Of a stretch of 54,243 bases of DNA, positions 10,808 to 20,721 are shown one piece after another (positions within the stretch are counted from its first letter, which is position 1; each line of letters opens with the position of its first letter). The notes beneath the pieces are model-generated. The model saw only the letters and a list, made by a program, of their open reading frames with translations, was not told the DNA's origin and did no database searches. Made by a program: the position numbers and the translations under genes. The stretch is from NCBI GenBank assembly GCA_964533285.1, contig CAZHLT010000277.1, positions 1-54,243 of the forward strand, given 5' to 3'. This DNA comes from an uncultured Conexibacteraceae bacterium. GTDB taxonomy: Bacteria > Actinomycetota > Thermoleophilia > Solirubrobacterales > 70-9.

Positions 10808-13800
10808 TCATGCGGCCACCCCCCGCAGGCAGCGTTTCTGCGCCGCGCGGGCCGCCCGCAGCCGGTGCCGCGCCTTTCGTCGGTGCCCGGCGGCGGCCCG
10901 GCGCAGGTCCCGGGTCGCATTCCGCACCCGCCGCTGCTCGGCGGCGCAAGCGGGCGGCGTCGATTGACCCCCGTCCCTCGGGGCGAGCGAGCCGATTGCG
11001 GGCCGCCGCGACGGCTGAGTCGGGTTGCCCTGGCAGAAATCTCCGCTGCAGGGCGGCAAAGAGTATTCGGCGAATCCGCCCCCGACGCGCGCGTCGTAGA
11101 CGTCGGTCAGCTGATCGACGTCGGAGCCGACCAACTGCTGCCGGCTGAGGAAGAAGACGTCGTTTCCGCTCGGGGTGGCGTCGAGGAAGTCGGCGTCGGT
11201 GGTGCCCGTACCGGAGGAGATCAGCGAGACATCGCCGTGCGACCAGCGGTAGACGTCGGCGCGCCCGTTGACGTCGGCGCCGACCAGGGCCTGGGGAGTG
11301 CTGAAGTAGGCGGCCGAGCCGTCGGGGGCGAGGTTCCCCGGCAGAGCGCCCACGCTCTCGCCGGAGGTGCGGCTGAAGCCAGGGGCGAGCAGCGAGTCGC
11401 CGGCCGCGAGCTCGCCGTGCTCCGGACAGGAGAGGCAGGTGAGCTCGTCGGCTTCGGCGTCGTAGAGGTAGGTCTCGGCGCAGCGACCTTCCTGGTTGGC
11501 GTGCTCGAGGCCTCCTGCGTTTTCAAACGGCGGACAGGCGGCCGGGTTGGTGTTGTCGTAGCTGGTCAGCGGTGCCCGTGAGGTGAAGAGGAGGTGGCCA
11601 CCGTCCGGCGCGGTCCGGGTGACCCGGCGCCGATAGCCGGGACTCGACGTCCAGTTGCGGGCGTCGGCCACCTCGTCTGAGCGACCGCTGAGGTCGGGGG
11701 CGAGGGTCGCGATGAACCTGGTAGTCCCTTCTTCCCAGAGGTAGAGGTTGGGCTCGCCGCGCGTCGCGCCGGGCGCGAGGTCGCCGCCGGCGGCGAAGTA
11801 GACCCGCGAGAGGTCGTCGCTGGCGCCGAGGACGCCGTAGACGTCGGCCCCGGCCGGGTCGGCGGTGGTGAGGTCGTCGAGAGCCCCCGAGTCGACGTCG
11901 TAGAGGTAGAGGTCGCGACCCTGTGGCGGGGTCGTGTAGAGCTCAACGAATCCGTATTCGCCGCTCGTACAGCTGAGGGGCGGCGGTACAGGGACGTAGC
12001 TGGTCGAATCGTCGGTCAGCTTCTCGCAGCTGTAGAAGAGCACCTTGGAGCCATGCTCGGTCTCGGCGGCGACGAAGGTCGCCGGCAGCGGGCCGTCGGG
12101 ATCGGGGGACGTCGCCTGGCTGGCGCTGATGCGCGTGCTGGCATCGTCGGCCGTCGAGGCCGTCCCCTGGTCGTCGCGAACGTAGAGCTGGCCGGCGTTC
12201 GAGGAGCGAGTGGTCGCCAAGCCGGGTTCGATCGCGTGGAAGAAGAGGCGCCGGCCGTCGGCCGAGATCGCGCCCTTGACCGAGCCGACGGTCGGGTTGG
12301 AGCCGGCGACCGAGCCGAGAGGCGCCGGCGCTTCGGGGAGCGGGCCTTCGCCGTCGGGGTCGACGATGCCGACGAGGCGGGTCTCGCCGTCGACCCACTG
12401 GTACGTGTTGATCAGGCCGGTGACCGGGTCGGCGGTTTGCGGGACCCCCTCTGACGTGTAGTAGAGATGGCTCCAGTCACTCGATGCACCGCCGAAGAAG
12501 TAGCTCTTCTTGACGCGAGTAGCCGGCCCCGGCGGCCCGAGCTCATTGGGGTTGATCTGCGCATAGCCGCCGTCCGAGTTGTCGCGGACGTAGAGGTGGT
12601 CGGTCAGAGGGGTTGCGCCGGGTGACAGCGCGGCGTGGCTGGTAACCACGAGCTTGTCGAGATCAGGAGAGAATCCGAGCAGACTGTAGGCACTCGTCCC
12701 CGACGGGATCGGCGGATCGATCGCCTCCGAAGACCAGCCGCTGACCGGGTCGCGATCGGCGAGCAGCGGCGTCAGCCAGCCGGCGTTCGCGCCGGGAACG
12801 GAGAACGTCGCCGCGAAGGCGACGCGGTTGCCCGACGGGTCGACCGCCTGCGCGCCCCAGGAGCCCATGTCGATGCCGTTCTTCTGGTCGGGGGAGACCT
12901 TCTCGTATCCGCGACCCGGAGGAGGCGGCGGCAGCGTCTCGCCGGTGCGGAAGGTCTCGACCCCACCGACGGTCTGGCCCGCGCCGTTCTCGGCGACGAC
13001 GCGGAAGTAGTAGCGCGTGCCCGGGCTCAGCCCGGTCACCAGTTGCGCCACGAAGGCGAGCTCGGTGCCTGAGCCAGCGTCCGCGTCCTGGCTCGCCGGG
13101 AAGCTCGCGGTGGCGGCGGGTGGCAGGGCTGGGTCGGTTGAGTACTCGATCCAGTAGGAGGTCTGGTCGTGCTGGGGGTCGACCTGGCCGCCAAGCCAAG
13201 CCGCGGTGTCGGTGCGGCTGCCGGCGGCGAGGGTGACCACGCGCGGCGGCGCCGGGAAGGTGTTGAAGACGGCGGTGGCGCTCGTCCCGATGCCGCCGTT
13301 GAACGCTTTCGAGGCGACCAGACGCAGCTCGTATTCGGTGTTCGGCTCGAGCCCGGTCGCGGTCTGGATCACCGAGTTGTTCGAGCCGATCGGCCCGGCG
13401 TCGGCGCCGGCGACCGGGACCCGGGTCCACTCGGTCGCGCCAACCGGCCGGTACTCGAACCGGTAGGAGGTGGTGAGGCCGGTGGGGTCGACGTGACCGT
13501 GGAAGCTGGCGCCGGTCGCGGTGATCGCGTCGACCGGAGTCGGGTCGAGGGTGGCGATCGGGAGGATCGGCGCGGCGGCGGTGTAGACGCGGGCGGCGCC
13601 GCTCCCAGGCGGGCTGGTGGAGTCGAGGTGGATCCGCCCCGTGGCCCCGGTCACCGCCAAGCCGAGGACGCCAAGCCGCAGCCCGGCGCAGGCGAAGTGC
13701 GCGTCGAGCAGGTTGCCCGCCGAGTCGAACTCGAGCACTCGCCGCTCTTCGACCGACGGCGCGCCGGAGGGGCAGCTGGCGGTGGCGGCGGCCGGGGTCG

Positions 13801-14893
13801 CCCGGGTGACGAGCACGTTGCCGCTGACCGGGTCGACGGCGATGTCGGTCGGGGTGGTGGCGGACGTCCCGCCGGCGAAGGTCGGCGCGGCGAAGAGTGC
13901 GGCGTCCAGGCTCGAGCCGGAGGGGGCGAACTTTTGCACGCGGAAGTTGGCCGACTGCTCGACCGTGAAGATCGCGCCCGAGGAGTTGACGGCGACACGG
14001 TTGGTTCCGGTCCCGAGCTGCCCGATCGCAGGCCCGGAGGCGGCCGCGACCTTGCAGTCGGCCGCCACAGTGCAGATCTCGAAGCCGGTGCCGCCGCCGG
14101 TGAGCACGTCGTAGCCGAAGGTCCTGACGAAGGCGCCCGAGGGTGCGAATTCCTGCACGCGGCGGTTGCCCGGGTCGGCGACGACGACGTTGCCGGCGTT
14201 GGCTGGGCCTGGCGGCACGACCGCCGGATACCCATTGAAGGTCGAGGCAAAGGAACCGCCGCTGGCCCCGGACGTGCCGACCTTGCAGCCGGGGGCAACG
14301 GTGTCCGCAGCCGTGCAGACCTCGGTCGTGGTACCGCCCGTCGGATTGAGGACGTCACGCCCCCACATCAGCTGGAAATTGCCTGCCGCGTCGAAGCGCT
14401 GGACCCGGAGGTTGGTCTGCTCGGTGACGTAGACGTCGCCGGTGGCCTGGTCCACGGCGATCCCCTGTGGCGAGTTGAACTCGCCCCCCGCGGCGCCGGT
14501 GACCCCGGCCTTGCAGTCGCTCGCGACGGTGCAGATCTCGAAGCCGGTGCCGCCGCCGGTGATCACGTCTTTGCCCCAGGCGCGGATGAAGGTGCCGTCG
14601 GCGCTGAACTGCTGGATGCGGTTGTTGGAGCCGTCGACGACGTAGATGTCGCCGGGATCCGCCGCACCCGCGCCGGTCTCGTTGACGGCTATGCCGCGCG
14701 GCGCGTTGAAAAGGCCGCCGTCGGCGGCATCGCCGCTCGGGTTCGTGCTGGTCGGATTGCCGAAGGAGGAGACGACCGACTTGGGCGCGGCGCCGGCTGG
14801 CACAGCTGCCAGCGAAAGCGCGAGGACGGCGGCAATCAGGATTGCAGCAGCTGCGCGCTGGACCAGGGCCACAAGACGTGCCTTTGCCTTCAC
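10808..14893 (-). CDS. Large secreted NHL-repeat / FN3-like / TolB-like beta-propeller protein (1361 aa)
   Basis: GTG 14893 after GAGGAG. Signal peptide ..AAVLALSLAAVPAGA. NHL blades (FNAPRGIAVN..YVVDGSNNRIQQF; FNSPQGIAVD..RVQRF). Two FN3-like units (TSYRFEYRP.., TSYWIEYS..YYFRVVAENGAG). PD40-like repeats (ISADGRRLFF, APDGGHLLFTS, LAPDGSAAYFS). 34-nt exact intragenic repeat at 14070-14103 and 14529-14562. Confidence 0.85.
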   Translation of the reverse strand: MKAKARLVALVQRAAAAILIAAVLALSLAAVPAGAAPKSVVSSFGNPTSTNPSGDAADGGLFNAPRGIAVNETGAGAADPGDIYVVDGSNNRIQQFSADGTFIRAWGKDVITGGGTGFEICTVASDCKAGVTGAAGGEFNSPQGIAVDQATGDVYVTEQTNLRVQRFDAAGNFQLMWGRDVLNPTGGTTTEVCTAADTVAPGCKVGTSGASGGSFASTFNGYPAVVPPGPANAGNVVVADPGNRRVQEFAPSGAFVRTFGYDVLTGGGTGFEICTVAADCKVAAASGPAIGQLGTGTNRVAVNSSGAIFTVEQSANFRVQKFAPSGSSLDAALFAAPTFAGGTSATTPTDIAVDPVSGNVLVTRATPAAATASCPSGAPSVEERRVLEFDSAGNLLDAHFACAGLRLGVLGLAVTGATGRIHLDSTSPPGSGAARVYTAAAPILPIATLDPTPVDAITATGASFHGHVDPTGLTTSYRFEYRPVGATEWTRVPVAGADAGPIGSNNSVIQTATGLEPNTEYELRLVASKAFNGGIGTSATAVFNTFPAPPRVVTLAAGSRTDTAAWLGGQVDPQHDQTSYWIEYSTDPALPPAATASFPASQDADAGSGTELAFVAQLVTGLSPGTRYYFRVVAENGAGQTVGGVETFRTGETLPPPPPGRGYEKVSPDQKNGIDMGSWGAQAVDPSGNRVAFAATFSVPGANAGWLTPLLADRDPVSGWSSEAIDPPIPSGTSAYSLLGFSPDLDKLVVTSHAALSPGATPLTDHLYVRDNSDGGYAQINPNELGPPGPATRVKKSYFFGGASSDWSHLYYTSEGVPQTADPVTGLINTYQWVDGETRLVGIVDPDGEGPLPEAPAPLGSVAGSNPTVGSVKGAISADGRRLFFHAIEPGLATTRSSNAGQLYVRDDQGTASTADDASTRISASQATSPDPDGPLPATFVAAETEHGSKVLFYSCEKLTDDSTSYVPVPPPLSCTSGEYGFVELYTTPPQGRDLYLYDVDSGALDDLTTADPAGADVYGVLGASDDLSRVYFAAGGDLAPGATRGEPNLYLWEEGTTRFIATLAPDLSGRSDEVADARNWTSSPGYRRRVTRTAPDGGHLLFTSRAPLTSYDNTNPAACPPFENAGGLEHANQEGRCAETYLYDAEADELTCLSCPEHGELAAGDSLLAPGFSRTSGESVGALPGNLAPDGSAAYFSTPQALVGADVNGRADVYRWSHGDVSLISSGTGTTDADFLDATPSGNDVFFLSRQQLVGSDVDQLTDVYDARVGGGFAEYSLPPCSGDFCQGNPTQPSRRPAIGSLAPRDGGQSTPPACAAEQRRVRNATRDLRRAAAGHRRKARHRLRAARAAQKRCLRGVAA

Positions 14894-15003
14894 GGAATCT
14901 CCTCTGTCCTACGCCCCAAGCCGCGAACGACTCCCTGCCGGTCCCGTGTCGGAGCGCTGTTTGCAGTAACCCATTGCTCGCCTCCCTGGCGAACGACAGC
15001 AGC

Positions 15004-15025
15004 GTAGAGGATTGCGTCTACAAAT
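15004..15025. promoter_or_regulatory. Shared operator-like motif, site A (gtagaggattgCGTCTACAAAT), upstream of the giant secreted-protein operon
   Basis: Lies in the lower-GC intergenic region 14894-15167. It contains TAGA-N8-TCTA dyad symmetry and matches sites at 18008-18029 and 19502-19523. Confidence 0.5.
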
Positions 15026-15038
15026 GCAACCAGGATCG

Positions 15039-15076
15039 TTTGCAGGGCGAGGGAAGACGCGAAAAGTCCCTGCAAA
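15039..15076 (-). terminator. Hairpin (9-bp stem tttgcaggg/ccctgcaaa, 20-nt loop) downstream of the TetR gene ending at 15168
   Basis: 15039-15047 and 15068-15076 are exact reverse complements. There is no clear U-tract, so terminator function is uncertain. Confidence 0.3.
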
Positions 15077-15167
15077 TAATCGTCAAGCAGGCAGCTCTGC
15101 AAGCGCCGGAGCCGCGAGCGAGCGGGTCGACAGCGAGGGACGGCGAGAGGGCTCGCGACGACGCGAG

Positions 15168-15851
15168 CTAGGACTCGCCGCGGGCGAGGCGCACCGCTTC
15201 CTCGCGCCCGTAGTAGGGCGCGAGGAAGAGCTCGAGCAGGCCGGGGGCGAGGGCGGCCAACTCCTCTCCCCTGCCCTCCTTGACCTCGGTGACGATCAGG
15301 GCGACGAGGCCGCCGAGGAGGCCGTCGGCGACGGCGCGGGAGGGCCCGCGCACGGCGGGCGGTGGGGGCTCGCCGGCGGTGAGGGCGGCGAAGAGGCGGC
15401 CCAGCAGCTCGCCGTAGCGGGCCGCCGGCTCGCCGCCGGCGCCCGGCGCGGCGATCAGGGCGAAGCGGGCGAGGTCGGGGTTGGCGGCGAAGGTCTGCAG
15501 GAGGGCCGTGAGCTGGGCGCGGAGCTGCTCGGGCCACTCCGCCGTACCCTGGGCGGCGTCGCGCAGCGAGCTCTCGAGGAAGGAGGCAAGCTCGTCGTAG
15601 GCGGCGGCGAAGCACTCTGGCTTGCCCGGGAAGTAGGCGTAGAAGGTGCGCCGCGAGACACCGGCGGCGGCGGAGATGTCGGTGATCGTCGCCTCGTGGT
15701 AGCCGCGCTCGGCGACGGCGGCGATCGTGCCGGCGATGAGGCGGCCCCGCTGGTTCTGCTCGACGAAGGAGCGCGGCAGGCCGTGGCGCCCGGGCGGCAG
15801 ACGAGAGAGGCCCGGCGCGGAGTCCTCCCCTGGCGGCTCGCGCTTGCTCAC
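15168..15851 (-). CDS. TetR-family transcriptional regulator
   Basis: LIAGTIAAVAERGYHEATITDISAAAGVSRRTFYAYFPGKPECF. Start placed at GTG 15851 (VSKREPPGE..). The 383-aa ORF-track version has an R/P-rich shadow extension. Confidence 0.8.
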   Translation of the reverse strand: MSKREPPGEDSAPGLSRLPPGRHGLPRSFVEQNQRGRLIAGTIAAVAERGYHEATITDISAAAGVSRRTFYAYFPGKPECFAAAYDELASFLESSLRDAAQGTAEWPEQLRAQLTALLQTFAANPDLARFALIAAPGAGGEPAARYGELLGRLFAALTAGEPPPPAVRGPSRAVADGLLGGLVALIVTEVKEGRGEELAALAPGLLELFLAPYYGREEAVRLARGES

Positions 15852-15925
15852 CGGCGCAAGATAACGGCGAGGGCGACTCCTCGGGGCTGCGATTGACCGG
15901 CGTGTACGAATTTGTCTGGGACGTC

Positions 15926-16585
15926 TCAGCGCTCCTCGGCGGGGGGTGGCGGCGGGATCCGCAGCTCGGCCATCGCCGCCTCGTGGCCGAGGTAGGGGCG
16001 CACAGCGATGCACATCAGCTCGGGGACGAAGTCGCGGGCGGAGACGGCGCCGGCGCCGGCCCGCAGCTGTTTGAAGAGGAAGTCGTAGATCGCGCCGAGA
16101 ATGCCTTCGGCCGTACTGCGCGAGAGCGAGTGGGGGTCCGCGGCCTCGGAGCGGCCCTCGTCGATCAGATCGACGATGCGCCGCACATAGCGGTCGCGGT
16201 GGGCGGCGGCGAGAGGGCCGGCGGCAAGCATCTGGACCATGTCGAAGCGGGTCTCGGTCGGGCGCTCGGCGACGTAGTCGGCGGCGGCGTAGGCGGCGGC
16301 GCGAAGCCGCGGGCGCCAAGCGCCGGGTGGTGGCAGGGCGGCGAAGACGACGTGGTCGAATTCGGCGATGTTGGCGAGGTAGATGCGGGTGCAGAGGTCC
16401 CGCGGGTCAGCGGCGGGCGGGTCGAGGGCATCGGGGTCGGCGTCGGCGCGCTCCAGCGCCGCCGCGACGGTGAGCTGCTCGAAGCCGCCCTCGAGCACCA
16501 GCTCCATCGTCGCGCGGCGCAGGCGGGCGGCCGCCGGCGAGGCGGCGGGGGCAAAGGGGCCGCGGCGATGGTCGGGCTCAGGCAC
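15926..16585 (-). CDS. TetR-like paralog with a degenerate, proline/aspartate-rich helix-turn-helix region
   Basis: Aligns over its full length with the next gene. Where the paralog has VEAIVARAGVAREDFDRRFADKRD, this one has VAAALERADADPDALDPPAADPRD. C-terminus ELMCIAVRPYLGHEAAMAELRIPPP is identical to the paralog. Confidence 0.65.
   Translation of the reverse strand: MPEPDHRRGPFAPAASPAAARLRRATMELVLEGGFEQLTVAAALERADADPDALDPPAADPRDLCTRIYLANIAEFDHVVFAALPPPGAWRPRLRAAAYAAADYVAERPTETRFDMVQMLAAGPLAAAHRDRYVRRIVDLIDEGRSEAADPHSLSRSTAEGILGAIYDFLFKQLRAGAGAVSARDFVPELMCIAVRPYLGHEAAMAELRIPPPPPAEER
15948..16027. repeat. 80-nt direct repeat, copy 1 (3' end of TetR-like gene)
   Basis: ggcggcgggatccgcagctcggccatcgccgcctcgtggccgaggtaggggcgcacAgcgatgcacatcagctcggggac. 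One mismatch to 16597-16676. Confidence 0.9.
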
Positions 16586-17240
16586 CGGCCACCTCAGGCG
16601 GCGGGATCCGCAGCTCGGCCATCGCCGCCTCGTGGCCGAGGTAGGGGCGCACGGCGATGCACATCAGCTCGGGGACCAGCTCGGTCGCGATGACGGCCTC
16701 AGCGCCCTCGGCGAGCCGTTTCATCAGCAGCCCGTAGATGGACCCGAGGGCGCCCTCGGCGACGCTGCGGGAAAGCGCGTCGGGGTGCGCCGTCTCGAAG
16801 CGGCCGGCGTCGATCAGGTCGACGATCCGCTGCAGGTAGCGGTCGCGGACCGCCTGGGCCATCTCCCCTCCCTCGCGCATCGCGATCTCGCCGTAGCGGG
16901 TCTCCGCCGGGTGGGTGGCGATATAGGCGGCAGCGGCGTAGGCGGCGGCGCGCAGCGCATCGCGCCAGGCGGGCGCGGCGAGATAGGCGCCGAGGACGGC
17001 GCGGTCGAAATCGGCGATGTTGGCCTCGTAGGCTCGGTCGCAGCAGTCCCGCTTGTCGGCGAAGCGGCGATCGAAGTCCTCGCGGGCGACGCCGGCGCGG
17101 GCGACGATCGCCTCGACGTCGACGGCGCCGTAGCCGCGCTCGAGGACGAGCTCGATCGCGGCCTGGCGCAGCCGCTCCCAGGTCTCGTCGAGGACCGGTG
17201 AGGGCAGCGGGCGCAGCCGGGGTCGGCCGGTCACCGGCAC
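16578..17240 (-). CDS. TetR-like transcriptional regulator (tandem paralog)
   Basis: LRQAAIELVLERGYGAVDVEAIVARAGVAREDFDRRFADKRDCC. 8-nt overlap with the downstream paralog. Confidence 0.7.
   Translation of the reverse strand: MPVTGRPRLRPLPSPVLDETWERLRQAAIELVLERGYGAVDVEAIVARAGVAREDFDRRFADKRDCCDRAYEANIADFDRAVLGAYLAAPAWRDALRAAAYAAAAYIATHPAETRYGEIAMREGGEMAQAVRDRYLQRIVDLIDAGRFETAHPDALSRSVAEGALGSIYGLLMKRLAEGAEAVIATELVPELMCIAVRPYLGHEAAMAELRIPPPEVAGA
16597..16676. repeat. 80-nt direct repeat, copy 2
   Basis: 79/80 identical to 15948-16027, while the rest of the two genes is much more diverged. Confidence 0.9.
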
Positions 17241-17265
17241 CCTCCCGGCAGCCGGGCGGGGGCAG

Positions 17266-17928
17266 CTAGGCGGTGGCGGCGAGCAGCTGCGCGGTCGCGC
17301 TGTGACCGAGGTAGGGCTCGAGCACGATCTCGGCGAGCTCGGGCAGCAGGCCCACCCCGTCGCCGATCTCGCCGAGGACGAGCCGCTGCTGCAGGAACCA
17401 GGCGGCGCCGCCGAGGATCGCGGTCTCCAGTGTGCCCGGCAGCTCGGCGGCGGCCGGGTTCGCCTCGCGCAGGAGCCGCAGCTCGGGCGCGAGGCGCTCC
17501 AGGGTGGCGTCGTAGCGGGCGCGCGCCTCGGTGCCGGCGGTCTGGGCCTCGACCAGGACGAGGCGGGCGCGCAGCGGCTCGGCGGCGAGGAGGGAGAGCA
17601 GGGCGCGCAAGGCGGCGCAGACCCGTTCGGGCTGCGGCGCGTCGGGCGGGACCCGGGCGGCGATCTGCTCGCCGGCGTCGGAGAGCGCGCTCTCGTAGGC
17701 GGCGAGGAAGCAGTCCTCCTTGCCGGCGAAGAGGGCGTAGAAGCTGCCGACGCCGACCTTGGCGGCGGCGACGATGTGGTCGACGGTGGTGGCGGTGTAG
17801 CCGCGCTTGGCGAAGACGCCGGTGGCGGCCTCGATGACGCGCTGGCGCTGGTGGGCGGCCATCACCTCCCGCGGCAGCGGCTCGCGGCCGACCGGCGCGC
17901 TGGCGAGGTGCTCGGGCAGGGAGGCCAT
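17266..17928 (-). CDS. TetR-family transcriptional regulator
   Basis: Start at internal ATG 17928 (MASLPEHL..). VIEAATGVFAKRGYTATTVDHIVAAAKVGVGSFYALFAGKEDCF. Confidence 0.8.
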   Translation of the reverse strand: MASLPEHLASAPVGREPLPREVMAAHQRQRVIEAATGVFAKRGYTATTVDHIVAAAKVGVGSFYALFAGKEDCFLAAYESALSDAGEQIAARVPPDAPQPERVCAALRALLSLLAAEPLRARLVLVEAQTAGTEARARYDATLERLAPELRLLREANPAAAELPGTLETAILGGAAWFLQQRLVLGEIGDGVGLLPELAEIVLEPYLGHSATAQLLAATA

Positions 17929-18007
17929 CGGCTGAGGATAGCCCCGCCGGAACCCCCAAACGGGGGATCGTTGGTTGCAGGGAGCCCGGCGGGGCGTTCG
18001 TTCCATG

Positions 18008-18029
18008 ACTGAGGATAACGTCTACATAT
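18008..18029. promoter_or_regulatory. Shared operator-like motif, site C (actgaggataaCGTCTACATAT), between divergent TetR genes
   Basis: AT-richer 124-bp divergent intergenic region. GAGGAT-N2-CGTCTACA-N-AT is shared with site A. Confidence 0.5.
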
Positions 18030-18052
18030 AAAGGTGCTACGGTCTCCAATAA

Positions 18053-18733
18053 ATGGTCGGGCGGGGCCAAAGCCGTGCGGGCCGGGCGGGAAGCGAGCGC
18101 GGCGGCCCGGAACGGGGCCGCGGGCGCAGCGGCGATGAGACGGCCGCGAGCGTGCGGGCGCGGATCATGACGGCGATGCTCGAAGCCTGCGGCGAGAAGG
18201 GATACCGGGCGGTCGCGGTGCGCGACGTGATCGAGCGCTACGGCGGCTACCGCAGCCAGTTCTACGGGCACTTCGCGAGCAAGGCCGACTGCTACGCCGC
18301 GGCCTACGAGACGGAAGCCGAGCGGCTCTACGAGGCGCTCGCCGCGCAGGCCGCCGGCGAGGGGAGCTGGCGGGAGCGGCTGGAGCGGGTGCTGGCAGGG
18401 CTGGGGCGCTTCGCCTGCGAGCGTCCGGCGCTGGCGCGCGGGCTGCTCGTCGAGGTCCAGGTCGCCCGCGGGCGGGCGCTGGAGATGCACCGGGAAGTTT
18501 TCGAGCGCCTCACCCGCGCTATGGACAGCGCGCGCCGCGAGACCAGGTCTCGCCACTCTCCACCTCCGATGACAGCGCTCTTCATGGTAAGCGCAATCGA
18601 GAGCTCTGTCACCTCGGCGCTCCTGCGCTCCGAGCCGCAGTCCTTCGCCGCCGCGGTGCCCGAGCTGGCGGAGATAGTCGCCTCGGCCTACTGCGGCGAA
18701 GAGGCGGGCGAGCGGCGATCGAGCGCGGCGTGA
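18053..18733 (+). CDS. TetR-family transcriptional regulator
   Basis: IMTAMLEACGEKGYRAVAVRDVIERYGGYRSQFYGHFASKADCY. Divergent from the 17928 gene. Confidence 0.75.
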   Translation: MVGRGQSRAGRAGSERGGPERGRGRSGDETAASVRARIMTAMLEACGEKGYRAVAVRDVIERYGGYRSQFYGHFASKADCYAAAYETEAERLYEALAAQAAGEGSWRERLERVLAGLGRFACERPALARGLLVEVQVARGRALEMHREVFERLTRAMDSARRETRSRHSPPPMTALFMVSAIESSVTSALLRSEPQSFAAAVPELAEIVASAYCGEEAGERRSSAA

Positions 18734-18773
18734 GGGTCCGGGGATGGCGCTACCAGTTTGGTACCGTTATGGG

Positions 18774-19007
18774 ATGAGCAAGCAGATCGCGGTCCGACTC
18801 CCAGATGACCTTGTCGACTTCGTCGACGAGATCGTCGAGTCCGGCGCCGCGCGCAGTCGGGCGGCTGTCGTGACCCAGGCGCTCGAGCGCGAGCGCCGGC
18901 GTGCGCTCGCAGAACGCGATGCTCGGATCCTCGCCCGCACCGGCCCGGACCCCGAGCTCGCCGGCCTCGCCGAGTACGCGGCGGGCCTGCCTCGCGACCT
19001 CGCCTGA
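18774..19007 (+). CDS. mazE: Ribbon-helix-helix antitoxin (MazE-like)
   Basis: MSKQIAVRLPDDLVDFVDEIVESGAARSRAAVVTQALERERRRAL. TGATG stop/start junction (1-nt overlap) with the toxin. Confidence 0.7.
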   Translation: MSKQIAVRLPDDLVDFVDEIVESGAARSRAAVVTQALERERRRALAERDARILARTGPDPELAGLAEYAAGLPRDLA

Positions 19008-19306
19008 TGCGGCCGATCCACGTCGCCCGGCTCGACGAGGCGAGGCCCGTGTTGATCCTTACGCGTGAGCTCGTGCGGCCGCATCTCGCCACGGTGACCG
19101 TCGCCCCGATCACCACCACCGTCCGGGGACTCTCGACCGAGGTTGCCGTCGATTCGGCGAACGGTCTCAGCGAGCCCTCGGTCGTGAGCTGCGACAACAT
19201 CACCACGATTCCCGCCAACGCCGTGGGAGAGCAGATCGGGCTCCTGCTCGACAGCCAAGAGCAAGCCCTGCGCGAAGCGATCGTGGCCGCGTTCGACCTC
19301 GACTGA
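19007..19306 (+). CDS. mazF: PemK/MazF-family toxin
   Basis: 99 aa. RPVLILTRELVRPHLATVTVAPITTTVRGLSTEVAV...SVVSCDNITTI is the typical MazF core. Confidence 0.8.
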   Translation: MRPIHVARLDEARPVLILTRELVRPHLATVTVAPITTTVRGLSTEVAVDSANGLSEPSVVSCDNITTIPANAVGEQIGLLLDSQEQALREAIVAAFDLD

Positions 19307-19501
19307 TCGCTCGCCCTTCGCGGGGACGCAGGGCACAAGGGCGGGATGTCCGGGGAGGACAGCCGCGCCGCTTGTGCCCCGATGGCGCCGCCCCAGGGAG
19401 GAGGCAGCGCCCCGGTTCTCCGCGGCGGGCTTGGGTGGCACGCCGGCTGCTGGGGAACCTGCCGCCGCGACGGGCCCTGGTCGCGGCGGGTTGAGGGCAT
19501 T

Positions 19502-19523
19502 CTAGAACTTGTCGTCTACAAAT
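19502..19523. promoter_or_regulatory. Shared operator-like motif, site B (ctagaacttgtCGTCTACAAAT), upstream of the Ig-like/PASTA protein gene
   Basis: 32 nt upstream of ATG 19555 in an AT-rich stretch. TAGA-N8-TCTA dyad as in site A. Confidence 0.5.
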
Positions 19524-19554
19524 AGAAGGATATAGGTGTATCATCCTCGCCGGG

Positions 19555-20721
19555 ATGATTCGAGCCGCAGGGACGACCGCGCTTGTCTGGCTGCTGACGC
19601 TGGGCGTCTGCGCGTCGGCGGCGAGCGCCGAGCCGCTCTCGATGACGTTCACCGAATCGCGCGCCAACGTCGGGGTGCAGCTTTCTGACGCCGCCCTGTT
19701 CGAAGCGCCCGATACAGCTGCGTTCGAAGGACAGCTCGACCCCGGGAGCGGCTTGATCGTGGAAGGCGATCTGGCGGTCCCGGATTTCTCGACCTTCATC
19801 ACCGAGCCTCTCGATGCTGACGTCACCGTCGATTTCGAGATCGGGATCATCACGGGAAGCTTCACCCAGGCGAGCGGCGCACTCCTCTTGACGGGCGAAG
19901 CGGGCGGGACGCTGAAGGCGAACGGAGAGGAATGCATCCTTTCGACGACCCCCTCCGTCCTGACCCTCTCGACGCTCGGAAGCTCCGGCGGCAGCACTCC
20001 GCGCTCCGGGGCGCCGTTCGCCCACGGGCTGACCGGGGCGGGGGCGATCGCCGGGCAATGGAACGACATGACCGCGACCCCGGTCGACCCGGGACCCGGA
20101 GGGGACACCGCCGCTTGCGAAACCGTCGACGATCGCATCGGCGGGCCGGGGGGCGTCTGGCTGCGCCAGGAAGGCGACGTCGTGCCGCCCTCGGCACCGC
20201 AGCTGAGCGGCACCGATCCGGCTTCGCCGAACCCGAGTGGGACCCCGCGAGTCCTCGGCGCAGCCGAGCCGGGATCGACGGTGCGCGTCTATGCGGGCTC
20301 GAACTGCGTTGGCGCACCGGTCGCCACCGCAAGCGCGGCCAAGCTTGGCTCTCCCGGCATCTCCGTCGAAGTCGCGGAAGGCGTCACCGCCGTCTTCTCG
20401 GCGAGCGCCACCGATGCAGCCGGCAATACCTCCGCCTGCTCGGCGCCGATCTCATACACGCGGGTGAAGTCGACGAGCGGACCGAAGCCGAGCCCGGCGT
20501 GCGTCGTCCCGAAGCTGGTCGGCAAGACGCTGAAGGCGGCGAAGAGGCGGATCAAAGCGGCGGGCTGCAAGCTTGGCGAGGTCCGCGGGCCGCGCCCGCC
20601 GGACCGCCGGGTGCCGCTCGTCGTCAAGTCGTCGAACCCCGGGGCGGGAGCGAGACCGGCCGACGGCGAGGTCGACGTCAGGCTCGGGCCAAAGCGGGGC
20701 AGAGCCCCCAGGAGCAGCTAG
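19555..20721 (+). CDS. Secreted protein with Ig-like domain and C-terminal PASTA domain
   Basis: Signal peptide MIRAAGTTALVWLLTLGVCASAASA. Ig-like segment PRVLGAAEPGSTVRVYAGSNCVGAPVATASA...ATDAAGNTSACSAPISY. PASTA-like VVPKLVGKTLKAAKRRIKAAGCKLGEV...VVKSSNPGAGARPADGEVDVRLG. Confidence 0.75.
   Translation: MIRAAGTTALVWLLTLGVCASAASAEPLSMTFTESRANVGVQLSDAALFEAPDTAAFEGQLDPGSGLIVEGDLAVPDFSTFITEPLDADVTVDFEIGIITGSFTQASGALLLTGEAGGTLKANGEECILSTTPSVLTLSTLGSSGGSTPRSGAPFAHGLTGAGAIAGQWNDMTATPVDPGPGGDTAACETVDDRIGGPGGVWLRQEGDVVPPSAPQLSGTDPASPNPSGTPRVLGAAEPGSTVRVYAGSNCVGAPVATASAAKLGSPGISVEVAEGVTAVFSASATDAAGNTSACSAPISYTRVKSTSGPKPSPACVVPKLVGKTLKAAKRRIKAAGCKLGEVRGPRPPDRRVPLVVKSSNPGAGARPADGEVDVRLGPKRGRAPRSS

Follow-up and report, generated by a model that had tools for sequence, protein, structure and literature searches.

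A 22-bp operator-like motif conserved with a TetR cluster in soil Solirubrobacterales, and a candidate structured RNA beside one of its sites

What is controlled by a 22-bp motif that occurs at three intergenic positions around a cluster of TetR-family genes, and which protein might bind it? These questions are raised by contig CAZHLT010000277.1 (assembly GCA_964533285.1) from an uncultured soil bacterium of the Solirubrobacterales (Actinomycetota); its 54,243 nucleotides, all of which were analysed, are referred to here as the window. A sequence-only reading of this DNA had described the three sites (A, B, and C) as lying upstream of a giant secreted-protein operon, upstream of a secreted Ig-like/PASTA gene, and between two divergent TetR genes, respectively, and had suggested that one of the TetR paralogs co-regulates the secreted proteins and itself. 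With somewhat more confidence than doubt, we favor the view that the motif is the operator of a regulator of a conserved Solirubrobacterales module, that the regulator is most likely one of the TetR proteins of the cluster, and that the operator overlaps three promoters. The earlier proposal is partly supported, in an interpretation in which one of the three targets would be a new structured RNA and not the Ig/PASTA gene.

The three look-alike sites are where they had been reported, with the sequences given for them (Table 1), and chance does not readily account for them. All three are intergenic and on the + strand. The core CGTCTACA[A/T]AT occurs three times in the 54 kb, only on the + strand and only between genes, compared to an expectation of 0.11. 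Similarly, CGTCTACAAAT with no more than one mismatch has 3 matches in the window, compared to a mean of 0.11 in dinucleotide-preserving shuffles (n = 100), none of which reached 3, in agreement with the earlier judgment that the recurrence is unlikely by chance. The 11-nt core had been called identical in all three regions; it is the same in A and B, but C matches at 10 of the 11 positions. A matrix made from the three sites scored the sites themselves at 37-39 bits and the next best position in the window at 14 bits. A weaker fourth site had been placed at 15908-15921. The sequence is as described, but it is a 2-mismatch match that was below threshold in every matrix; matches of this kind are not clearly enriched in the window (8 versus 2.4 expected), and we found no conserved site at the equivalent place in relatives. 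Strain variation around site C amounted to two changes, C>T (18009) and G>A (18034), seen in soil-metagenome contigs from two runs of another study. They flank an intact site C core, which is consistent with constraint, and are too few to weigh.

The site and the TetR cluster are conserved together across genomes. The DNA of the window is known from soil metagenomes only, and the assignment to the Solirubrobacterales agrees with the names that homologs carry. A search with the divergent TetR gene, T4, gave 294 homologs at E ≤ 1e-20, of which the best 120 outside the window were 53-80% identical in amino acid sequence. We compared the window with T4-homolog loci L181, L182, L183, L184, L185/L186 (L186 is a second contig of the L185 lineage), L187, L188, L189, and L190-L193, in which the T4 orthologs are 60-80% identical to that of the window (80% in L181). 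The same cluster, consisting of an operon for a secreted NHL/FN3 protein, three to four tandem TetR paralogs, and one divergent TetR gene (T4), was found in ten lineages. In every lineage, T4 is divergent from the tandem array and the paralogs of the array sort into the same orthogroups, T3, T2, and T1. On every contig that is long enough on that side, small genes (collagen-like or unannotated) and the gene for the giant NHL/FN3 protein come after the array in the same direction. More distant TetR arrays in L135 and L141 had only a vague similarity to this cluster and were not used.

We identified 28 sites in the ten cluster-bearing lineages, all in one orientation relative to the cluster, with the consensus TWGAGGATnRCGTCTMYAWWTA, in which G-8, A-7, and G+1 are invariant. 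Class C, between T3 and T4, is present in all 10 lineages. Class A, between the T1 stop codon and the secreted-protein operon, is present in nine (orthologs in L182, L183, L184, L185, L187, L188, L189, and L190), and class B, past whatever follows T4, in seven. A further site, one per lineage (class X), lies past the RNA element described below in L188 and in L189. Thirteen of the 28 sites, plus two copies on L186, were recovered by matrices whose training did not include them (A of L185; B and C of L186; A and C of L187; A, C, and X of L188; C of L182; all four of L189; and both of L190). Phylogenetic footprinting, one of the checks that had been suggested for the motif, thus gave the same site classes in the same orientation in 10 lineages.

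High-scoring matches were confined to the cluster. In the approximately 630 kb of loci that were scanned, every match above 19 bits was a cluster site. The best match in approximately 434 kb of non-cluster Solirubrobacterales loci (L122-L177) was 15.1 bits, with no comparable site. A scan of species-representative genomes with the pattern GANNNTNNCGTCTACAWATNNA gave, among the matches listed, only single chance matches in unrelated phyla.

The sites overlap predicted promoters. Local promoters are of a leaderless type, lacking a Shine-Dalgarno sequence and having a TANNNT hexamer 6-10 nt ahead of the start codon, and this grammar allows the sites to be placed relative to transcription starts. 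T3 has TATCCT-N6-ATG (hexamer at 17935-17940), both in the window and in T3 orthologs, and several Ig/PASTA orthologs have TATCCT-N6-9-ATG. In having TANNNT or TGnTANNNT at this position, T3, T4, and the Ig/PASTA gene are like known leaderless actinobacterial promoters (TANNNT -10, weak -35). Nothing about the promoters of the window is unusual in this respect; they provide a background grammar.

All ten C sites have a + strand TANNNT at +19 to +24 from the core start (TACGGT, TACCGT, TATCGT, or TAGCGT), preceded in nine of them by TGn. The extended -10 of T4 in the window is TGcTACGGT (hexamer at 18038-18043). The core of site C starts 34 nt before the T4 ATG, the same distance as in L181, L183, and L184; the T4 mRNA is probably leaderless, and site C would span roughly -43 to -22 of the T4 promoter. 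The 16 A and B sites all have a minus-strand TANNNT, at + positions -14 to -9 over the left arm in 11 and a further 9-10 nt on in 5, and we therefore place A and B on minus-strand promoters. In the window, the minus-strand hexamers TACGCT (15001-15006, site A) and TAGAAT (19499-19504, site B) overlap the left arms. Embedded -10 elements would fix the orientation of a site, which we believe is why all sites have a single orientation. We also considered minus-strand leaderless open reading frames (ORFs) starting at ATG 19500 or 18006, each 12 nt from the core (B and C, respectively). These were rejected, as the B-side ORF in L181 reads ATG TCC TAA; the extension of the ORF from 18006 has approximately 70% GC at third codon positions.

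The motif might itself be a promoter, recognized by an alternative sigma factor of the extracytoplasmic function (ECF) type, with CGTCT or the minus-strand ATCCTC as its -10. CGTC is a frequent core of ECF -10 elements, there are Sigma70_r2 genes near the cluster in L181 and L188, and leaderless genes of the order often have TATCCT as their -10. However, the flanks of the 28 sites have no conserved GGAAC-like -35 at 16-17 nt upstream of CGTC in any class, and transcription from a + strand promoter at site A would run into T1 from its 3' end; on these grounds the ECF promoter was rejected. In addition, conventional TANNNT hexamers lie beside every site, and there is no sigma gene near the cluster in the window. 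The A at position 2 of the minus-strand hexamer, which is essential, is lost in several sites (AGTCCT, TGCCCT, TTTCCT, and TGTCCT), and GAGGAT as the reverse complement of a -10 (ATCCTC) was dropped as a general rule for this reason. We consider a sigma factor promoter very improbable.

The A and B sites have a dyad that is typical of dimeric helix-turn-helix (HTH) proteins. At the level of the consensus it is TAGAG-N8-CTCTA, and the five A and B sites with a CTCTA core match it at 5/5 positions. In L188, the repeat of the B site is perfect over 8+8 positions (GTTTAGAG-gattgagt-CTCTAAAC). For sites whose core is TCTAC, the score is 4-5/5 in a register shifted by 1 base, as for site A of the window (GTAGA-N8-TCTAC, 5/5) and site B (4/5). 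The TAGA/TCTA dyad that had been pointed out in A and B is therefore real at the consensus level; it is absent from C and is not a property of the whole family. Most of the 28 sites have a second CGTYT about two helical turns (22 nt) downstream of the core, as CGTCTAC in the B sites of L182, L187, and L188, as GTCTTTTTA in four A sites, and as the CGT of the T4 -10 in the C sites. This repeat suggests a possible tandem second binding unit.

Our best guess for the binding protein is T4, because the T4 promoter carries a site at a fixed distance and because the T4 recognition helix varies at one position. Four of the five TetR-like genes of the window were confirmed by Pfam, and the fifth (U) had no match. 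T1, T3, and T4 have intact HTH motifs, all with Pfam TetR_N. The recognition helices are invariant in T1 (VSRRTFY) and T3 (VGVGSFY), and only that of T4 varies, as GGYRxQFY, where x is S, S, L, L, Q, H, A, and V in eight lineages; we take this to be the base-contacting position in the TetR and QacR complexes. The helices of T2 and U are acidic and divergent, and those of the T2 group are acidic in all lineages, which may mean that T2-group paralogs no longer bind DNA. U is 41-49% identical to T2-group proteins and its HTH region is decayed, reading ADPDALDPPA in place of the VxRADFDRHF of relatives. A fusion of T2 and T1 into a TetR-TetR protein of approximately 470 amino acids is present at four itemised loci (L185:5690-7105, L187:5023-6435, L188:5678-7099, and L189:4018-5433), although the fusion was counted in three lineages at one place in the analysis.

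The sites could also be operators of a regulator that is encoded elsewhere, global or not of the TetR family, in which case the TetR cluster would be a target and not the source. T4 is a best guess for the binder, C sites have no dyad symmetry, and the second CGTYT 22 nt downstream suggests tandem binding on the same face, which is more typical of some non-TetR regulators. In the 10 lineages, though, the sites were found only beside the cluster and nowhere else in approximately 630 kb, the fixed position of site C on the T4 promoter is a classic layout for autoregulation, and the site classes and TetR orthogroups are inherited together. We regard a regulator from outside the cluster as unlikely, if the most serious of the alternatives. 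The small local regulon tied to the adjacent TetR paralogs, as had been predicted, agrees with the co-conservation of motif and cluster and with the position of site C on the T4 promoter.

Site A has the same neighbor throughout. Its position upstream of the giant secreted-protein operon, as had been described, holds in every lineage in which the DNA reaches the operon, and giant NHL/FN3 orthologs are in the same position in L183, L185, L187, L189, and L190. In the window, site A is 143 nt downstream of the T1 stop codon and 111 nt upstream of the NHL/FN3 gene, which has a GTG start (14893), a GGAGA Shine-Dalgarno sequence, and a hydrophobic N-terminus like that of a signal peptide. A 9-bp inverted repeat, TTTGCAGGG-N20-CCCTGCAAA, lies at 15039-15076, between the T1 stop codon and site A. 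It was not listed by the terminator scan and is likely a terminator, lacking a U-tract, of the T3-T2-U-T1 transcript.

The conserved partner of site B appears to be a structured RNA on the opposite strand. Site B pointed to this RNA candidate, which was found only in that way. The element is present once per locus, in constant orientation, in 8 lineages (outside the window, L181:2668-2847, L182:9819-10015, L185:8958-9129, L187:9528-9705, L188:9465-9647, L189:8611-8788, and L190:7743-7935), with a length of 172-205 nt across lineages. Marked by GCACAAGGGCC...CGCTTGTGC, it adjoins the B site on the left in L182, L185, L187, L188, and L189; in L190 it directly follows T4. Between the window and L181, the element is 97% identical, compared to 87% for T3'-T4 and 79% for the Ig/PASTA region, and it is better conserved than any neighboring gene. 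There is no reading frame that is open in all lineages and no U-tract terminator. Among RNA-seq runs, none was found that lists this organism.

The RNA structure is conserved and is backed by compensatory changes, with support that is good but not deep (8 sequences from 7 distinct lineages in the alignment). Of the cells at 39 consensus pairs, 96.7% are paired, compared to 91.6% in shuffles (0/500 reached the observed value) and 36-56% with slid partners. Ten of the 39 pairs are changed on both sides, versus 4.3 in shuffles, none of which (0/500) reached 10. The single-sequence fold had a z-score of -4.2 for the minus strand and -3.5 for the plus strand. One-sided changes, read on the minus strand, gave 45 G.U versus 5 A.C cells (11 versus 4 with a structure predicted without G.U pairs). 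Based on this asymmetry, the functional strand is probably the minus strand, which would put the 5' end at site B. A TANNNT is found at the 5' side in 7 of the 8 lineages. From these sequence comparisons we conclude that site B is probably the operator and promoter region of an unannotated small RNA (sRNA) gene.

The candidate RNA matches no described family that we could find. A covariance model run over 617 kb matched only these copies. Rfam 15 (including 6C, 6S, SRP, RNase P, and riboswitches) had no match at gathering thresholds in the whole window, and nothing on the RNA element at E ≤ 5 over 14850-19600. A P35 match at 17941-18009 (E = 1.9, 23.9 bits versus a gathering threshold of 70) lies off the element, on an inverted repeat upstream of T3, and was treated as chance. 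That repeat, a perfect 10-bp inverted repeat (GCCCCGCCGG...CCGGCGGGGC, 17941-17995) between site C and the T3 start that encloses a CCCCC-aaac-GGGGG hairpin, is retained in L181 and not in L183 or L184. Like 6C RNA (Rfam RF01066) and similar actinobacterial sRNAs, the candidate would be a stand-alone small RNA with stable GC-rich hairpins. Two of its hairpin loops carry UYCCCWGG, a repeated C-rich loop motif, as in 6C RNA, that could pair with G-rich ribosome-binding sites. Unlike 6C RNA, it is approximately 170 nt with four helices, about twice as long, it has no 6C or other Rfam match even at E ≤ 5, and it has a fixed context by the TetR cluster, with an operator-like site on its putative promoter.

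Site B had been assigned to the Ig/PASTA gene, and it is possible to keep that assignment. The site would then be an operator or promoter element of the Ig/PASTA gene, the regulon would consist of the secreted proteins and the TetR genes, and the GC-rich stretch to the left would be a spacer. In the window and in L181, the core is indeed 15 nt upstream of a good -10 (TATCAT) that is 10 nt before the ATG, and both site and -10 are conserved in the two (in the window, the -10 starts 15 nt past the end of site B). One operator commonly serves two divergent promoters, and co-regulation in this lineage is possible, albeit not as a conserved role. Nonetheless, the Ig/PASTA gene adjoins site B only in the window and its closest relative, L181. 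Among 56 JGI metagenomic loci with Ig/PASTA orthologs (56-72% identity) none had the motif upstream, it was found in 0 of 53 orthologous Ig/PASTA upstream regions, and no GTCTACAWAT was present in the 434 kb that these loci comprise. P0002 and P0004, the closest homologs of Ig/PASTA, had no shared synteny. The B sites of L182 and L187 have no plus-strand gene within several hundred nt, that of L188 directly adjoins the 3' end of a gene on the minus strand, and that of L185/L186 is followed by an unrelated DUF3892 gene. Lastly, the putative spacer, with 97% identity between the window and L181, exceeds the surrounding genes and shows covariation. We think that the Ig/PASTA gene is unlikely to be what site B serves, marginally more so than a regulator from outside the cluster is unlikely to be the binder, and that the opposite-strand RNA is the conserved partner.

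A different palindrome, GATACGCTGTATC or GCTACAGTGTAGC, is present 30-80 nt upstream of many Ig/PASTA orthologs, just downstream of the TATCCT hexamer (L122, L123, L124, L142, L143, L155, L157, L158, L170, and L175), and is not present in the window. This palindrome may serve the Ig/PASTA gene family as an operator or as a hairpin in the 5' untranslated region.

Between T4 and site B, the window has a toxin-antitoxin pair that had gone unmentioned and that is not part of the proposed regulon. This segment, from the T4 stop codon to the 3' end of the RNA, is a slot for variable cargo (window 18734-19327; L181:1032-2668; L182:6712-9820; L184:3324-3922; L187:8715-9528). Toxin-antitoxin genes are frequent contents. 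The window has PemK, L182 has RES + HTH, Fic, and RHH, and L184 has PIN/VapB. Unrelated genes are present elsewhere, as in L181, with a gene for 197 amino acids and a DUF2188 gene. Homology between the window and L181 breaks at 18734 and 19327, and neither a recombinase nor a repeat was seen at these breakpoints.

The variable cargo is one reason to ask whether the sites have any current function. They might be remnants of promoter duplication among the TetR paralogs, or recombination sites that flank the cargo. The TetR genes are tandem paralogs, the cargo between T4 and site B differs by lineage and is often a toxin-antitoxin pair, and all sites are direct repeats. In opposition to the first possibility, the paralogs are old (approximately 30-38% identity between groups), yet the site classes have been kept where orthologs are only 40-80% identical. 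As to recombination, 700 nt and 175 nt separate the cargo breakpoints from the sites closest to them, no recombinase is among the genes called in ten loci over 6-10 kb to each side of T4, and no variable segment is flanked by site A. A Xer/dif-like or cassette-boundary site was rejected on the first two of these findings. The metagenomic joints included no excision or inversion junctions at motif cores; the joints fell inside the TetR paralogs, and many in the soil-run variation data are cross-mappings between these paralogs. Of the alternatives, a site without current function seems to us the least probable, and we return to the motif as an operator.

Table 1. Positions of the motif sites, the candidate RNA, and the genes around them in the window
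Feature	Position	Strand	Sequence, evidence, or remark
Site A (class A, operator-like motif)	15004-15025	+	gTAGAggattgCGTCTACAAAT
Site C (class C), between divergent T3 and T4	18008-18029	+	actGAGGATaaCGTCTACATAT
Site B (class B), 5' side of the minus-strand structured RNA candidate	19502-19523	+	cTAGAacttgtCGTCTACAAAT
Conserved structured RNA candidate, ~165-175 nt, four helices	19326-19498	-	Covariation, conservation; unannotated
T4, divergent TetR-family regulator	18053-18733	+	Pfam TetR_N, TetR_C_15
Tandem TetR array T3-T2-U-T1	15168-17928	-	Orthologous arrays in relatives
T3	17266-17928	-	Pfam TetR_N; leaderless-type promoter
T2	16578-17240	-	Pfam TetR_N
U, degenerate T2 duplicate, 219 aa	15926-16585	-	No Pfam match
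T1	15168-15851	-	Pfam TetR_N
NHL/FN3 repeat secreted protein, 1361 aa, first gene of the operon downstream of site A	10808-14893	-	Pfam
Variable cargo: 87-aa antitoxin-like gene and PemK/MazF-type toxin	18744-19306	+	Gene calls on identical Logan contig, Pfam
Secreted Ig-like/PASTA protein	19555-20721	+	Own -10 TATCAT (19539-19544), 10 nt before ATG

A model for the module would be as follows. It would consist of the secreted NHL/FN3 operon, T1-T2-T3, the divergent T4, and, in most lineages, the stand-alone structured RNA of approximately 170 nt. Site A would lie on the minus-strand promoter of the secreted operon, over the -10 TACGCT. Site C would lie on the + strand leaderless promoter of T4, so that T4 would be autoregulated. 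Site B would lie on the minus-strand promoter of the RNA gene, over the -10 TAGAAT, and, in the lineage of the window and L181 only, a short way upstream of the divergent Ig/PASTA promoter. With the repressor bound, the three promoters would be closed to RNA polymerase, and a ligand of the TetR protein would release all three units together.

Several observations lower our confidence in this model. The C sites, at 1-4/5, are not palindromic, which is unusual for a TetR operator, and the -35 regions next to the sites have no consensus. In the L190-L193 lineage, the RNA is present with no recognisable B site, and in L183 and L184 the fetched DNA has sites of classes A and C and lacks the RNA element. 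The specificity scan covered approximately 630 kb of loci, and a genome may have further sites outside the cluster. Both core variants at +5/+6, AC and CT, occur side by side in single genomes (L185, L187, and L189); a genome-by-genome co-variation of these variants that looked strong with four genomes was gone with ten, and a link between them and the T4 helix variants is confounded by phylogeny and may carry little weight. The sites with their conservation, placement, and orientation, the -10-like hexamers next to them, and the conserved structure and favored strand of the RNA are seen in the sequences themselves. Finally, protein binding, the identity of the binder, repression as opposed to activation, the transcription starts, and expression of the RNA are all things that we infer, and we have counted this against the model as well.

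A system of TetR-type operators with an sRNA gene is of a conventional kind, and the value is in the specific conserved instance. As in modules of the TetR-tetO and QacR-IR1 type, there would be an operator on the regulator's own promoter and further operators on nearby targets, with an imperfect inverted repeat in a site of approximately 18-22 bp over the -10 or the -35/spacer, and the expected logic would be ligand-released repression. In contrast to those modules, the cluster in the window retains four TetR paralogs instead of one, there are three operator classes, of which the regulator's own (C) has no dyad, an 8-bp spacer separates arms of 5-8 bp, another CGTYT lies one 22-bp period away, and the targets would be a giant secreted NHL/FN3 operon and an RNA gene instead of an efflux pump or a catabolic enzyme.

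We found nothing in the literature relevant to the module or the RNA family, and both appear to be undescribed. More tentatively, and as a possibility that we rate well below the operator itself, several co-inherited TetR paralogs and a dedicated new sRNA family, with paired C-rich loops and an operator-controlled promoter of its own, may share one operator type and form a self-contained module that controls the NHL/FN3 (and collagen-like) operon both transcriptionally and post-transcriptionally across the Solirubrobacterales.

Hardly any experimental genetics exists for the Solirubrobacterales, which are abundant actinobacteria of soil. The cluster offers them a testable regulon, with three promoters, one 22-bp operator consensus, and four candidate repressors, together with what may be a new family of structured RNA, one that Rfam does not contain. 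If a TetR protein of the cluster does bind the motif, then sensing of a small molecule would be linked to very large secreted NHL/FN3 proteins and an sRNA, and the sites would provide promoter and operator parts for a clade that has no genetic tools.

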